Of a stretch of DNA of 24,000 nucleotides, positions 5,153 to 24,000 are shown piece after piece. The stretch spans positions 1 through 24,000 of the forward strand of contig NZ_ATUO01000047.1 of the NCBI RefSeq assembly GCF_000420245.1. The letters are read 5' to 3'. Position 1 is the first letter of the stretch. The number at the start of each line of letters is the position of its first letter. This DNA comes from Psychromonas hadalis ATCC BAA-638. GTDB lineage: Bacteria > Pseudomonadota > Gammaproteobacteria > Enterobacterales > Psychromonadaceae. Both the position numbers and the translations under genes were made by a program. The notes under the pieces are model-generated. The model saw nothing but the letters and a program-made list of their open reading frames with translations, was not told the origin of the DNA and did not search any database.

Positions 5153-5584
5153 GTAACTACTCAGCACCTATCTCACACTTTTGATGGCTTATAGAGGATC
5201 AAAAAAGATCGACTTGCTTGATCCTTTTTAGCCGTTACTCTAAATACTTTCCTCCTACAGGCGTAACCCGCAGAATGAAAGTAAATGGTATCGATATTGA
5301 AAGTAATGTTGAACGCTTACAAAACTATGAAGATGATGTGCTCAGGTTTATGGTTGATAGGGAGGTTCCTTTTACCAATAATCAAGGAGAAAATGACTTG
5401 AGGATGGCAAAAGTTCAGCAAAAGATATCCGGTTGCTTTAGAAGTGAATATGGTGCCGAAATGTTTTTTGGCCTCAGAAGCTACCTATCTAGTTGTAAAA
5501 AGCAGGGAGTTAGTGCATCTACAGCTTTAGCGTTATTGCTAAAGGGTATGCTAGCAAATATTTTTACCTCTGCTGAGTAGTTAC
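5153..5584 (+). mobile_element. Internally deleted IS66-family element (432 bp, non-autonomous)
   Basis: Perfect 14-bp terminal inverted repeats gtaactactcagca (5153-5166) / tgctgagtagttac (5571-5584), beginning GTAA as in IS66-family ends. They enclose only the C-terminal part of a transposase. No target-site duplication is evident. Confidence 0.75.
5218..5580 (+). pseudogene. IS66-family transposase, C-terminal fragment only
   Basis: The ORF-track peptide contains VPFTNNQGENDLRM, KISGCFRS and GLRSYLSSCKKQG. I recognise these as the conserved C-terminus of single-ORF IS66-family transposases. The N-terminal 75 percent or more is missing, and the track start is a non-ATG codon. Confidence 0.7.
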
Positions 5585-18703: not shown

Positions 18704-20494
18704 ATGTCAGCCAATTTCTATAATAAAAATGCCGATCAACTCGCCGAGATGTACCTATCAAAAACATTTGAGCAGATTCATCAGCCTTGGCTTGAATACT
18801 TAATACCTGTGTTAAATAAACCCAATGCGCGAATTTTAGATTTAGGTGCGGGCTCAGGGCGAGATAGCAAATATTTAGCAGAGCAAGGCACGGCTAACAA
18901 TATTCATGTTACCGCAGTAGAGCCCGCACAAATGTTGGCTAATCTAGGCAAAAAACACACCCAAGGCCTAAACGTAACTTGGCTACAAGACACACTTCCT
19001 GATTTAACGACCGTGACCAAACAAGAGGTCAGTTATGACTTGATACTACTCAGCGCCGTGTGGATGCATATCCCCGACTCGCAACGTCAACGCTCATTAC
19101 GCAAATTGGCCAATCTACTCAAACCCGGTGGCAAACTGGTTATCTCACTACGCCATGGCCCAAGTGGTGATGAATTCAGTAATGTGCCACGCCGCATGTT
19201 TGCTGTGTGTAGTGATCAACTTATTCAGATGGGTAAAACATTTGGGCTATCAGTTTTATTAGAAACAGAGCTAAATGCAGATGTTCTCGGCAGGACAGAA
19301 ATAACATGGCAAACCGTGGTGTTGCAACTGCCAGATGATGGCAGTGGTGCATTCCCCTTTATCCGCCATGTTGCACTTAACGATGGTAAATCAGCAACCC
19401 ATAAATTGGCTTTAATGCGTGTTTTATTACGTATCGCAGATGGTCATCCCGGTGCGGTTATTCGCCGAGAAGATAATCGTGTGATATTGCCTGTTGGGCT
19501 GGTGGCTTTATACTGGGCACATCAATACAAAGACTTAATTGACAAACATCAGCTGTTTCAAAGCCCCAATAAAAACATCAATATGGGATTTATGAAAGCG
19601 AACGGTTGGCATCAATTAACTCAGCTACAAGCCTCTGATTATCGTATAGGAAACTTGTTTAGTGGTGATAATGCAAAAGCGATGTTTAAGATGCTTTCAG
19701 CCAGTGTCAGTAATATTAAAAACATGCCCTGTAAATTTATCACCTACCCGAACAGTGAAAAGAGCGTGTTTGAAGTGCACAGTAAAACCGTTCGCGCTAA
19801 AGACAGTTTATTTTTAGATCTCACTAGCTTAAATGCCTGGGGTGAGTTTTCAATACCGGAGCATTTATGGATTGCTTTTAGTCGCTACGCTTGTTGGATT
19901 GAACCAGTGTTAATTTCTGAATGGGTGAAAACCATGGCCGGTTATCAGGGTAACAAACAATACCAAGCACCCGAACAACAGCATAAATTATACACTGCGT
20001 TAAATTGGTTAGAAGCCAAACGCAGTACCACTGAGGTACGCAATCGTTTTGATAATTTACAAAAAGTAAAAGGTAATCAGCATAACTGCGTGTGGACAGA
20101 TAAAAGCTTAAAACAACAATACGCGATAGATCACTGCATGCCCTTTGCGCGTTGGCCTAATAATGACCTATGGAATTTATTACCCAGTGATGTGACGGTG
20201 AATGGTCAAAAAAGTGATCACTTGCCAACAGAATTAAAAATGAAAAATGCCAAACAGCGTATTACCGATTGGTGGTCAGATGCATGGCTGAATGAGGCCA
20301 ATGAAAGCTGCCTTGATATAAAGAAGGAGAGCCTTCAGCCCAAGGTAAGCAGCCACAGTCAACGTTTCTTTGCGGAGGCGAATATTGCCTTGCCCGGTTT
20401 AGATTCAAGTAACCATTCTGTTGATGATTTGTTTGAAGCGCTGCTATTACAAAGAGGGCGTTTGAAAGAGATGCAACAGTTGAGGGAATGGTGA
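18704..20494 (+). CDS. Three-part protein: N-terminal class I SAM methyltransferase, unrecognised middle region of about 250 aa, C-terminal HNH nuclease
   Basis: 596 aa. MTase motif I ILDLGAGSGRD (aa 44-54), VTAVEP, YDLILLSAVWMHIP, LKPGGKLVISL. HNH signature at aa 462-506: CVWTDKSLKQQYAIDHCMPFARWPNNDLWNLLPSDVTVNGQKSDH (nt 20087-20221). SD aaagg lies 5 nt before the ATG. Confidence 0.75.
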   Translation: MSANFYNKNADQLAEMYLSKTFEQIHQPWLEYLIPVLNKPNARILDLGAGSGRDSKYLAEQGTANNIHVTAVEPAQMLANLGKKHTQGLNVTWLQDTLPDLTTVTKQEVSYDLILLSAVWMHIPDSQRQRSLRKLANLLKPGGKLVISLRHGPSGDEFSNVPRRMFAVCSDQLIQMGKTFGLSVLLETELNADVLGRTEITWQTVVLQLPDDGSGAFPFIRHVALNDGKSATHKLALMRVLLRIADGHPGAVIRREDNRVILPVGLVALYWAHQYKDLIDKHQLFQSPNKNINMGFMKANGWHQLTQLQASDYRIGNLFSGDNAKAMFKMLSASVSNIKNMPCKFITYPNSEKSVFEVHSKTVRAKDSLFLDLTSLNAWGEFSIPEHLWIAFSRYACWIEPVLISEWVKTMAGYQGNKQYQAPEQQHKLYTALNWLEAKRSTTEVRNRFDNLQKVKGNQHNCVWTDKSLKQQYAIDHCMPFARWPNNDLWNLLPSDVTVNGQKSDHLPTELKMKNAKQRITDWWSDAWLNEANESCLDIKKESLQPKVSSHSQRFFAEANIALPGLDSSNHSVDDLFEALLLQRGRLKEMQQLREW

Positions 20495-20666
20495 AGAACA
20501 AGTGTAATAATGTGTAATCGTAAGTTGATGGGGTTTTCTGTAATATATTTCGGTTAACTTTATGATTTTAAAAGATGTAAGGTATAGATGTCCTTTTTTT
20601 CCTATTTTAAAACCTTTCTATTAGTGTTTTCGGTGACGTTTATAATTTTAATGGAATTAAACAATT

Positions 20667-21695
20667 ATGAGTAAATATTTTAATTCAGACTCAATAATAA
20701 CAGAGCATATTTCAGAGGCTCAGTTGAAAGCTTACTTTGTAGGGTTTGATTTTGGCGTTTTTCGTTATGAAGCTTTAACTAATAAGATAATGGAAGCGAT
20801 TGTTGATTTTGCTTTTGGTTGCCATGAAGGGATATTAAGTACGTATAAATTAGCCGAGTTGAGAGACGCTGCCCAGTTAATATATAAAATTGAAGAATAT
20901 GATCCTAATAATAAAAATCACCTCAAAAAAGGGAACATACCTTATAAAAATGCCGAAGAATTTAAAGAGTCAAGGTATTACAACCGGGGGGAGTTTGGGG
21001 AGCTTATTTTACACCTTATTCTTAGAGATTTTATGGAGACGACTCCTTTACTATCAAAAATATTTATGAAAGATTCTACTGGAATTACAGTAAAAGGCTT
21101 AGATGCCGTTCATATTGGTCGCGATCTCTCCGACCCAACAAAGAAGTCATTGTATTTAGGCGAATCCAAATTACATAGAACAGGAGAAACTGGTGTCAAA
21201 GAGCTTTTAAAGGATGTCAAAGAGCATTTTAACCGTAATTTTTTAAAAGGAGAGTTTCTCTTAATCGGAAATAAAAAAAACAATTTTTTGCCAATAGATG
21301 AATACAAAGATAAAAATACTATTGATGACTATAAAGAGTTTATAAAGGAAAAAAATTACTGGTATAACAAGTTAAAAGCGGTTCAAAAAGGAGAAGAAAA
21401 ATTACAGGATATTTTTTCTTCTGTGACAATACCAATGATTTGCACTTATACATCCGCTCTCTTTGAAACACATACAGACGAAAGTACAGATGAATTTAAA
21501 AGTGAATTCAAAAAAGAGATCGAATCTTTACAGAAAAAATTTCAAGACGGTGTTGAGTTAATTAAACAAAATGCTACGGTAGGTGAGCCAATTGCAACAG
21601 ACTTAAATATCATTTTAATGTTGTTTCCAATTCCGGATAAAAAAATTCTAGTGAAAAAATTACACGAAAAATTATCTCATCAGCAAAGGGCTTAA
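20667..21695 (+). CDS. hamA: HamA-like (DUF1837-type) PD-(D/E)xK nuclease effector of a Hachiman-type defence system
   Basis: 342 aa. GEFGELILHL (E109/E112), GLDAVHI (D146) and LGESKLH (E166-x-K168) give a D...ExK nuclease arrangement. It lies immediately upstream of an SF2 helicase (1-nt gap). Low-GC, K/N/I/F-rich composition. Confidence 0.7.
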   Translation: MSKYFNSDSIITEHISEAQLKAYFVGFDFGVFRYEALTNKIMEAIVDFAFGCHEGILSTYKLAELRDAAQLIYKIEEYDPNNKNHLKKGNIPYKNAEEFKESRYYNRGEFGELILHLILRDFMETTPLLSKIFMKDSTGITVKGLDAVHIGRDLSDPTKKSLYLGESKLHRTGETGVKELLKDVKEHFNRNFLKGEFLLIGNKKNNFLPIDEYKDKNTIDDYKEFIKEKNYWYNKLKAVQKGEEKLQDIFSSVTIPMICTYTSALFETHTDESTDEFKSEFKKEIESLQKKFQDGVELIKQNATVGEPIATDLNIILMLFPIPDKKILVKKLHEKLSHQQRA

Positions 21696-21696
21696 A

Positions 21697-23958
21697 ATGG
21701 ATTTTGACAAGATAATAGAAAGACTTTTAAAAGACGAAGCACTTTCTTTTAATGAAAGCTTTTTAATTGCAAGTACTTGCTCTATCTATTTGGACGATAA
21801 AAATTCTGAAAATGATGGACGTCGTATTATCATAAATATACTAGAGCAATTAAAAAAAATACCTTTAGAGACTTATGAAATATGGACTGATTTGATTGAA
21901 ATTGCAGGATTTTATCCATATTTAGAAAAAGAAAAGAAGCATTTAAAGCTAACTAGTATTCCAGCAAGAGTTAGAAAGGCATATCATATTTCTAACAATT
22001 TAGAAGGAATGTATTTTCAAGAAGAACAAAAATATCTTTTAGATTTATTGAGTAAAGACAAAAATGTAGTTGTAAGTGCACCAACTAGTTTTGGAAAGAG
22101 TTTGTTGATTGAAGAGATTGTCGCTTCTAAAAAATACAAAAATATAGTCATTATTCAACCAACCCTTGCATTATTGGATGAAACTCGACGTAAATTACTT
22201 AAATATAAAGATAGTTATAAAATCATTGTCCGCACATCGCAAGAGCCGTCTCCAGACAAAGGCAATCTGTTTTTATTAACAGCAGAAAGAGTGTATGAGT
22301 ACCTTGAATTTCCACATATCGACTTCTTAATTATCGATGAGTTTTATAAGTTAAGTGGAAAACGAAAAGATCCACGTGCAGATGTGTTGAATAGCTCGTT
22401 TTATAAACTTTACAATAAATTTAAATGTAGATTTTATCTCCTTGGTCCTAACATTGACGGAATCTCAGATGGTTTTGAAAAGCAATACAATGCAATTTTT
22501 TTTAAAACTGATTATAGCCTTGTTGATTGTGTCGTTAAGGACATTTTTAATTCCAAAGGAATCCCTTATATAGGTAAGGCCAAAAGAGAAAAATTATTTG
22601 AATTGTTAATAAGTAAACTCGACGAGCAAACAATTATTTTCTGCGCATCACCAGATGGTGCATTAAAATTGTCTATTGAGTTCATGTTGTTTTTAGAACA
22701 TAAAAATATGAAATTCAATGAGGTAGATGTTCCGCTTACTGAGTGGCTTTATGAAAATATTTCTAAAGAATGGGGGTATATTCCATTATTGAAGAATGGA
22801 ATAGGCGTTCATGTGGGGTCATTACCAAAACATATAACGTCATCAGTAATCGATTACTTTAATTCTGGTAAATTAAAGTTTTTATTTTGTACAACAACAA
22901 TTATTGAAGGTGTCAACACGAGTGCAAAAAATATGGTTTTTTTTGATAATAAAAAAGGAAAAAACATAAAAATTGATTACTTTGATTATGCAAATATAAA
23001 GGGTCGTTCTGGAAGGTTAATGATTCATTATACAGGCAATATGTATAATTTTAATCTAGTTCCCGAGAAAACAAATCTTGTCATAGATATCCCATTTTTT
23101 GATCAGAAATCAATTACAGCAGAAGTGCTAATTAATCTTAAAAAAGAAGATGTTATAGACAAAGAAACCGACACCTATAAATTTCTCGAATCATTGTCAA
23201 TACAAGAGCGCGAATTATATGCAAAGAACTCGATGCCGATTCATGGGCAGAAAGCCCTCTTTGATTATTTAAAAGAAAATTATATTGAAAATTCAAGCTT
23301 ATTTAATTGGACTTCATTACCTACCTACGAACAGTTAAATTTTGTTTTAGATAAGTCTTGGGAGTTTTTAAAGGCAGATGAGGAAAGGCTAGATCCCATT
23401 CTCTCAGCAAATCAATTATGTAGAAGTACGAACAATTTTGTAAGGAATCAAAAAACATTAAAAGGGATAATATTAGCAAACATTAGTGAGCATAAAGTAA
23501 ATAGAGGTGAAATTCAAAAGCATCTTAAAGATGGAAATTATGAAATTTCTAAATGGTTACGGGGCAAGCCAAAATCATATGGATGTATGAGTGATAATGA
23601 ATTAATTCACCTTTCTATCAATGATGCTCTTAAATTAAAAAAGAATGTTTTTGAATATAAATTACCCAAATGGTTGAAAACGTTTAATTCAATACAAGAA
23701 GCTGTTTGCAAGCATTTTGGAGATAAAGCTGGAAATTATCTTCATTACGCGAATATTATAGAAAATGACTTTATGCAAGAAAATTTAGCAATACTAGCTG
23801 AGTTTGGAATACCAAGTAGTGCAATTAGTAAATTGCAAAAGTATATACCAGACAATATGAATGAAGATGAGATATTAGGTTTTATTAGCTCTAGAGGTCT
23901 ATTGAATAAAGCAAATCTTATTAACTATGAAAAAGTAAAAGTAGAGGAGAATCTTTAG
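21697..23958 (+). CDS. hamB: HamB-like superfamily-2 helicase of a Hachiman-type defence system
   Basis: 753 aa. Walker A SAPTSFGKS (K134), motif Ia IIQPTLAL, Walker B/DExx LIIDEFY (D214-E215), motif V TTTIIEGVNT, motif VI NIKGRSGR. About 280 aa of C-terminal extension. The ATG lies 1 nt after the hamA stop. Confidence 0.75.
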   Translation: MDFDKIIERLLKDEALSFNESFLIASTCSIYLDDKNSENDGRRIIINILEQLKKIPLETYEIWTDLIEIAGFYPYLEKEKKHLKLTSIPARVRKAYHISNNLEGMYFQEEQKYLLDLLSKDKNVVVSAPTSFGKSLLIEEIVASKKYKNIVIIQPTLALLDETRRKLLKYKDSYKIIVRTSQEPSPDKGNLFLLTAERVYEYLEFPHIDFLIIDEFYKLSGKRKDPRADVLNSSFYKLYNKFKCRFYLLGPNIDGISDGFEKQYNAIFFKTDYSLVDCVVKDIFNSKGIPYIGKAKREKLFELLISKLDEQTIIFCASPDGALKLSIEFMLFLEHKNMKFNEVDVPLTEWLYENISKEWGYIPLLKNGIGVHVGSLPKHITSSVIDYFNSGKLKFLFCTTTIIEGVNTSAKNMVFFDNKKGKNIKIDYFDYANIKGRSGRLMIHYTGNMYNFNLVPEKTNLVIDIPFFDQKSITAEVLINLKKEDVIDKETDTYKFLESLSIQERELYAKNSMPIHGQKALFDYLKENYIENSSLFNWTSLPTYEQLNFVLDKSWEFLKADEERLDPILSANQLCRSTNNFVRNQKTLKGIILANISEHKVNRGEIQKHLKDGNYEISKWLRGKPKSYGCMSDNELIHLSINDALKLKKNVFEYKLPKWLKTFNSIQEAVCKHFGDKAGNYLHYANIIENDFMQENLAILAEFGIPSSAISKLQKYIPDNMNEDEILGFISSRGLLNKANLINYEKVKVEENL

Positions 23959-24000
23959 TTTTCTAACCCCACATTGAAACAACTTAAATTAAGGATAAAT

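Follow-up and report, generated by a model that had tools for sequence, protein, structure and literature searches.

Hachiman anti-phage systems of type II were defined by Payne et al. (2021) as hamAB pairs that have a DUF3223 gene upstream or downstream of them; they accounted for 3.8% of Hachiman systems, and when one of them was cloned in Escherichia coli, plaquing was reduced and culture collapse was averted (PMC8565338). In the tested type II operon of Sphingopyxis witflariensis DSM 14551, the gene order is hamC-hamA-hamB (PMC13064477). We analysed a stretch of 24,000 nucleotides (nt) from Psychromonas hadalis ATCC BAA-638, hereafter the window, which represents positions 1–24000 of the 25,480-bp contig NZ_ATUO01000047.1 (C47), so that window and contig numbering coincide. 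The 3' end of the window, together with the adjoining part of the contig, very probably carries an anti-phage operon of Hachiman type II, with the gene order hamA-hamB-hamC, that was acquired horizontally. 'Type II' is used here in the sense of the published adjacency definition, not as a system call of the PADLOC software. This three-gene form has already been published and the locus is an ordinary new example of it.

The mechanism of the HamAB pair has been worked out on two systems from E. coli. According to Tuck et al. (2024), HamAB of strain ECOR31 (type I-A; PDB 8VX9, 8VXA and 8VXY) is a 1:1 nuclease-helicase complex in which HamB restrains HamA on intact double-stranded DNA (dsDNA); single-stranded DNA (ssDNA) ends or DNA damage lead to ATP hydrolysis and active HamA, which results in degradation of phage DNA and host DNA alike (PMC12278908). 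Defence by this system is abolished by the substitutions E138A/K140A in HamA or D431A in HamB (PMC12278908). Cui et al. described the same logic for AbpAB of E. coli K-12 (type I-B; PDB 8ZUE) and, with the substitutions E150A/K152A, for a system of type I-A, and also reported that the catalytic residues of DUF1837 are missing from HamA proteins with extra N-terminal domains (PMC11914072). AbpA belongs to this latter kind: its 531 aa comprise a Cap4 nuclease at the N terminus and a DUF1837 domain devoid of catalytic residues (PMC12278908, PMC11914072).

In P. hadalis, hamA occupies positions 20667–21695 and hamB positions 21697–23958, both on the + strand and both with ATG start codons; their products consist of 342 and 753 aa, respectively. 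The junction between the two genes reads GCT TAA A ATG, which leaves a 1-nt gap, and an AAGGG Shine-Dalgarno-like run is found 5' of the hamB start codon, a layout that is compatible with translational coupling. These open reading frames (ORFs), their spacing and all the motifs that had been listed in a first-pass annotation of the window were re-derived from the ORF list and the translations and proved to be at the residues given there. The window ends 42 nt past the hamB stop codon. Its last bases (23959–24000, + strand) form the hamB-hamC spacer and hold TAAGGA, the ribosome-binding site of hamC, whose ATG lies one base beyond the window, at 24001, and whose stop codon is at 24645. The first-pass annotation had described a two-gene module because the window edge hid hamC: its assignment of the two proteins to HamA and HamB was borne out by the profile matches described below, whereas the two-gene architecture had to be replaced by a three-gene one. 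A terminator-like hairpin followed by a T-run is located at 24699–24715 (+ strand), directly 3' of hamC. On the other side, hamA is preceded by an AT-rich intergenic region of 172 nt (20495–20666, + strand), within which the operon promoter is presumed to lie; it is in this region, at roughly 20500, that the GC content drops from ∼0.41 to ∼0.30. A consensus scan found no promoter upstream of hamA at the scan threshold, which counts against the operon reading.

HamA, the predicted effector of the system, is assigned to the DUF1837 PD-(D/E)xK nucleases, its D...ExK site being intact. This assignment is fully supported by profile matches, residue conservation and the predicted fold, the profile E-values of HamA and HamB being well outside what chance would give. 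The Pfam domain PF08878 (HamA/DUF1837) was found at residues 37–321 with an E-value of 2.3e-35 and a score of 122.9 bits (cut-off 25), the match covering positions 3–229 of the 230 in the profile. HamA was also matched by 21 PADLOC HamA models, the best of which, PDLC00150 (labelled HamA1), covered residues 3–341 with an E-value of 7e-90. A word-index search yielded 388 homologues at E <= 1e-5, and PF08878 was present in all 120 that were listed. The catalytic residues D146 (nt 21102–21104), E166 (21162–21164) and K168 (21168–21170) were invariant in 38 aligned homologues with 46–85% identity, as were G108, F110, E112 and H116 from the preceding GEFGELILHL motif (residues 108–117). Neither Cap4 nor any Pfam domain besides HamA was detected in the 342-aa protein by the Pfam and PADLOC scans, and there was no NCBIfam model matching it. 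Searches of the PDB chains by sequence, with either phmmer or a 38-sequence profile, found no match to HamA, and its link to the solved structures was therefore drawn from fold comparison. An AlphaFold2 (AF2) model of HamA (predicted local distance difference test score, pLDDT, 87.9; predicted template modelling score 0.89) was compared by Foldseek with the PDB, including the published HamAB structures. The top three matches, each with a probability of 1.00, were the HamA chains 8zue_A (9.3e-8), 8vx9_A (2.1e-4) and 8vxy_A (1.2e-3). Significant matches were limited to solved HamA chains and the next one had E = 1. The first-pass annotation, which had proposed a DUF1837/HamA nuclease with a D...ExK site for the 342-aa protein, agrees with the profiles, the invariant triad and the fold alike.

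The second gene encodes an SF2 helicase of the Ski2/Hel308-like type, the predicted sensor, whose motifs I, II, V and VI are all intact: the Walker A motif APTSFGKS at residues 128–135 (K134 at nt 22096–22098), IDEFY at 213–217 with the Walker B residues D-E-F-Y at 214–217 (nt 22336–22347), motif V (TTTIIEGVNT) at 399–408 and motif VI (GRSGR) at 436–440. The PADLOC models for HamB matched it from end to end, with PDLC00201 (HamB2) covering residues 4–751 (8e-223) and PDLC00180 (HamB1) nearly the full length (1.9e-214); the protein was also matched by the Pfam domains DEAD, Helicase_C and ResIII and, in a phmmer search, by the E. coli K-12 AbpB/HamB chain 8zue_B (6.9e-79), all of which upholds its earlier identification as HamB. 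Beyond the 20 HamB models, the PADLOC matches were weak and partial only, the best being PDC-M23B (1.7e-15), with DpdF at 0.0024, and no models for GajB, Zorya or DISARM were listed among them. Membership of this helicase in another defence family was accordingly rejected.

A further alternative is that the pair represents a housekeeping or mobile-element helicase-nuclease for DNA repair or recombination, such as a Hel308-like module, and has no part in defence. HamB does show weak similarity to Hel308, to the Pol-theta helicase and to the Ski2/Mtr4 helicases; however, the only NCBIfam models it matched were archaeal Hel308-type helicases at 4e-07 and 1.5e-05, far below the cut-offs and orders of magnitude weaker than the HamB models. 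In addition, the locus was not found in the 24 further genomes of the genus that were searched, the GC content of hamABC is foreign, and the operon has a methyltransferase-HNH gene on one side and a RADAR locus on the other. A housekeeping or repair role thus appears extremely unlikely, and we favour the defence assignment. The search of those 24 genomes revealed no close HamB, only two distant matches at about 30% identity, from which we infer that the operon is a recent horizontal acquisition.

The second-best PDB sequence match of HamB was 9wh1_B, an 853-aa chain described as 'DNA polymerase theta (Helicase domain only)', which aligned with residues 118–472 (E = 7e-16). Its match is much better than those of the entries with the plain label 'DNA polymerase theta' (E of about 1e-4), and it has an APTS-like Walker A motif, SGPTSLGKS, and the Walker B motif VDEAHKLS.

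Two features of HamB had been singled out in the first-pass annotation as unusual, the DEFY Walker B motif and a C-terminal region of ∼280 aa, and both turned out to be typical of its relatives. DEFY was found in the aligned HamB proteins of three close relatives (L014, L015 and L016) and in a Geomonas HamB with 30% identity, and the corresponding segment of the solved AbpB (8zue_B) is IDEFYKL, identical to that of P. hadalis. Other HamB clades have DEAH in this position, namely L011 and the HamBs encoded on Bartonella, Agrobacterium and Rhizobium plasmids, and the Walker B motif of ECOR31 HamB has been reported as DEGH (PMC12278908). As judged from these alignments, DEFY is a clade signature of AbpB-like HamBs and not an anomaly of the gene at 21697–23958. 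As for the C-terminal ∼280 aa, they fall inside the PADLOC HamB profiles, which extend to residue 751, and residues 634–726 align weakly with residues 602–697 of AbpB. By sequence comparison, this region is a conserved part of HamB and, like the N-terminal ∼105 aa, is specific for HamB. In ECOR31 HamB, helical and accessory C-terminal domains form the nucleic-acid cleft. This HamB has C-terminal domains of winged-helix (WH) and OB-like type, and the AbpB type is without the WH and OB domains (PMC12278908, PMC11914072).

The product of the third gene, the 214-aa HamC (contig positions 24001–24645, + strand, outside the window), is a DUF3223 or 'DCL family' protein. It was matched by PF11523 (DUF3223; 1.2e-17), over nearly its full length by the PADLOC model PDLC00202 (HamC2; 5.6e-73), and by the sequence of PDB 2K0M, the nuclear magnetic resonance structure of HamC from Rhodospirillum rubrum (1.7e-15); it is also related to the DeCL domain of the largest subunits of plant Pol IV and Pol V (3e-7). 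An exhaustive representative search at E <= 1e-3 retrieved homologues from 1,848 clusters, many of them full-length two-domain proteins of 210–245 aa. In an AF2 model built from a 64-sequence alignment (pLDDT 90), residues 1–100 superposed on 2K0M (Foldseek E = 1.6e-6, template modelling (TM) score 0.78 on target). The remaining C-terminal domain of ∼110 aa is modelled as a long helix (residues 103–128), a strand ending in the conserved EYRH150 and helices at 155–165 and 190–203. Residues C111, C134, H150, P153, D180, Q182, Y183 and H200 of this domain are invariant or nearly so, and a metal site is conceivable. Foldseek found no significant PDB match to the C-terminal domain, the next best after 2k0m having E = 0.7 and a match to an HNH nickase (E = 4.9) being not significant. 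We also considered reading the segment EYRHTxPxF as an HNH/His-Me finger and rejected this as unsupported.

A fold search of BFVD with HamC returned only three uncharacterized phage proteins, all of which share the whole fold. These include A0A3G1L3Q9 from Synechococcus phage S-CBWM1 (Foldseek, 1.5e-9) and H6WFX8 from Cyanophage S-TIM5 (3.7e-7). A tblastn search detected another HamC-like sequence in Sinorhizobium phage AP-16-3 (OP484857.1, 55475–55990; 9e-10). Thus, the DCL module also circulates in phage genomes.

Several observations favour the inclusion of hamC in the operon. It lies 42 nt 3' of hamB on the same strand, and the GC content is about 0.30–0.33 over all three genes vs. about 0.41 in the upstream flank. 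There are no terminator-like sites between hamA, hamB and hamC, the one at 24699–24715 being the only such site on the + strand from hamA to rdrA. A search of 5.8 billion proteins gave, as the closest homologues of HamC, two proteins with 79% and 73% identity that are encoded on independent metagenome contigs. Immediately 5' of each of the two genes is the 3' end of a hamB, with 85% or 73% identity to that of P. hadalis. In addition, annotations show the order hamA-hamB-DCL for plasmids from Bartonella, Agrobacterium pusense and Rhizobium leguminosarum, whose proteins match the PADLOC type II models.

Other observations weigh against this reading and would fit a different one, in which a two-gene type I Hachiman system sits in a defence island beside an independent and self-sufficient DCL/DUF3223 gene, HamC being just a neighbour. 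The nearest HamAB relatives on long contigs (58–67% identity for HamA and 48–64% for HamB) are two-gene modules with no DUF3223 gene within 3–6 kb. The best PADLOC model for HamA carries the HamA1 label, and the 42-nt gap between hamB and hamC involves no coupled overlap. When the nine HamC homologues that are closest among species-representative genomes were inspected, only two were found to adjoin hamAB, both in the order hamC-hamA-hamB and with different HamAB clades. For the other seven, no hamAB was seen in the surrounding sequence, which at three of these loci extends hardly or not at all to one side. Their neighbours vary: a Type IIG restriction-modification (RM) gene with AbiGi, a RES-domain protein (RES toxin), DUF4238, a transposase gene or genes with housekeeping functions; close HamC homologues also occur alone. 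Finally, on each of two plasmids the DCL gene comes immediately after that of an AAA ATPase of PDC-S06 or LmuB-like type, with stop and start codons abutting. These points have to be set against the adjacency of hamB and hamC that is kept on the independent contigs of the two nearest relatives, the recurrence of the hamA-hamB-DCL order on three alphaproteobacterial plasmids with different HamAB clades, the common strand and GC content of hamABC with a terminator-like site after hamC and none before it, and the fact that the best HamB model, PDLC00201, is the type II HamB2. Moreover, exactly this adjacency is what defines type II in the scheme of Payne et al. (PMC8565338). We therefore regard the chance-neighbour explanation as improbable and retain the three-gene operon, reading HamC as an accessory that was acquired and kept by this Hachiman sub-lineage, with the HamC family as a whole being modular.

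The plasmid loci with the AAA ATPases are CP115967.1 (2189–5196) and NZ_CP082163.1 (1940–5142); the ATPase has 746–827 aa and is a PDC-S06 match (6e-271) or LmuB-like. They suggest that DCL/HamC is an accessory shared by several defence NTPases and not only by Hachiman. A bolder version of this view is that HamC is a portable module which plugs into unrelated DNA-tracking defence NTPases (at least three HamAB clades, the PDC-S06/LmuB-like AAA ATPases and possibly further ones) and serves them in common as sensor, regulator or second effector, the P. hadalis locus being its recent capture by an AbpB-like and otherwise two-gene Hachiman lineage. We consider this a tentative idea, with the odds rather against it; if true, the homology of HamC to the DeCL domain of plant Pol IV/V would hint at a common activity related to nucleic acids.

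The Type IIG RM neighbourhood was seen in a Gallionellaceae metagenome-assembled genome, which has two copies of a cluster consisting of a Type IIG RM gene (about 1190 aa), AbiGi and a DCL gene (L008, 3600–8672, and L009, 3586–10124). The AbiGi gene is intact in L008 and apparently split in L009; the DCL protein is 49–50% identical to HamC, and in L009 the DCL gene is followed by one for a HEPN/RES-domain protein.

Comparison with the described systems places the P. hadalis locus closest to type II, with which it shares a single cluster of genes for a HamA with DUF1837, a HamB of the SF2 type and a HamC with DUF3223, as well as the type II models PDLC00201 (HamB2) and PDLC00202 (HamC2) as the best matches of HamB and HamC. 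The gene order differs from the hamC-hamA-hamB of Sphingopyxis and is the same as on the Bartonella, Agrobacterium and Rhizobium plasmids; however, the plasmid systems belong to another HamAB clade, with HamA2 (PDLC00196) and an 865-aa, DEAH-containing HamB2 (PDLC00200), in contrast to the short AbpB-like DEFY helicase found here, and their HamC proteins are only 30–33% identical to that of P. hadalis.

Among the systems with solved structures, E. coli K-12 AbpAB is the closest relative of both HamA and HamB: the two helicases have identical APTS.GKS and IDEFYKL motifs in addition to the phmmer match mentioned above, and 8zue_A is the best fold match of HamA. The differences are that the HamA described here is a 342-aa protein consisting of DUF1837 only, in which D146, E166 and K168 are invariant, and that AbpAB has no HamC. 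As HamA is without Cap4 and its catalytic residues are present, the locus is not a member of type I-B, although its HamB belongs to the AbpB-like clade. With ECOR31 HamAB, the locus shares a single-domain catalytic HamA, in which E138 and K140 are the equivalents of E166 and K168, and a Ski2-like HamB. Nevertheless, the ECOR31 HamB is too divergent to have appeared in the phmmer list, the fold match of its HamA is weaker than that of 8zue_A (2e-4; TM score 0.46/0.57), and ECOR31 HamAB is a two-gene system. By pairing a DEFY helicase of the AbpB-like kind with a HamA that has a single domain and intact catalytic residues, the locus forms a bridge from the published 'type I-A' group to 'type I-B'. 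This would be compatible with a derived Cap4 fusion in AbpA, though it does not demonstrate one.

By analogy with the E. coli HamAB and AbpAB, HamA and HamB of P. hadalis would form a 1:1 complex in which HamB restrains the nuclease for as long as intact DNA is being surveyed by the complex. DNA ends or damage induced by phage would then load DNA into HamB and trigger ATP hydrolysis, and the ensuing conformational change would activate HamA, leading to indiscriminate degradation of phage and host DNA, i.e. abortive infection. Because HamA has no Cap4 fusion and its DUF1837 active site is intact, DUF1837 itself is expected to be the effector. The trigger in the DEFY clade, be it ssDNA ends or dsDNA, is uncertain, since it was dsDNA, and not ssDNA ends, that reportedly stimulated the ATPase of AbpAB (PMC11914072). 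That report counts against a simple transfer of the scheme to P. hadalis, as does its derivation from the distant ECOR31 HamAB and the Cap4-fused AbpAB. HamC might serve as a co-transcribed accessory with a modulatory, nucleic-acid-binding or second-effector role, which is a speculative proposal.

The locus carries little weight as a discovery, given that Hachiman, including its three-gene type II, has been published and is represented in PADLOC, and that HamAB has been characterized mechanistically. Its annotation has been corrected from two genes to three, and it provides an example of a window edge concealing a component. The only lead with discovery value is the role of HamC and its apparent modularity, seen in the DCL proteins behind PDC-S06/LmuB-like ATPases and in other variable regions; the compact and clean hamABC operon is well suited to probing that role.

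Both neighbours of the operon in P. hadalis were mentioned above. Directly 5' of hamA lies a gene (18704–20494, + strand) for a 596-aa protein with an N-terminal S-adenosylmethionine (SAM) methyltransferase domain and a nuclease domain of the HNH_4 type, whose only PADLOC match was a weak one to mad2 (1.3e-19). Directly 3' of hamC, beyond the window, is the RADAR locus, represented on C47 (24744–25391) by the 5' part of rdrA, which matches positions 5–195 of the PADLOC RdrA profile and is cut at 25360 by the end of an IS66-family insertion sequence (IS), GTAAGCG..., GTAAGCGTCAGGG... The rest of rdrA (profile positions 193–896) and rdrB are found on contig C161 (3690–7638), behind the other end of the IS, ...GACGCTTAC. 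The same 8 bp, GATTATTT, are present at both IS junctions, on C47 and on C161, and represent a target-site duplication. With rdrA split by the IS66 element, RADAR is probably inactivated, and C47 and C161 are joined through the IS. The C-terminal end of an IS66 transposase is encoded elsewhere in the window, at 5218–5580 (+ strand), by a 120-aa ORF that matches only positions 229–283 of PF03050; on the basis of this match, the ORF is a remnant of an IS66 element or a partial copy from the IS family that splits rdrA.

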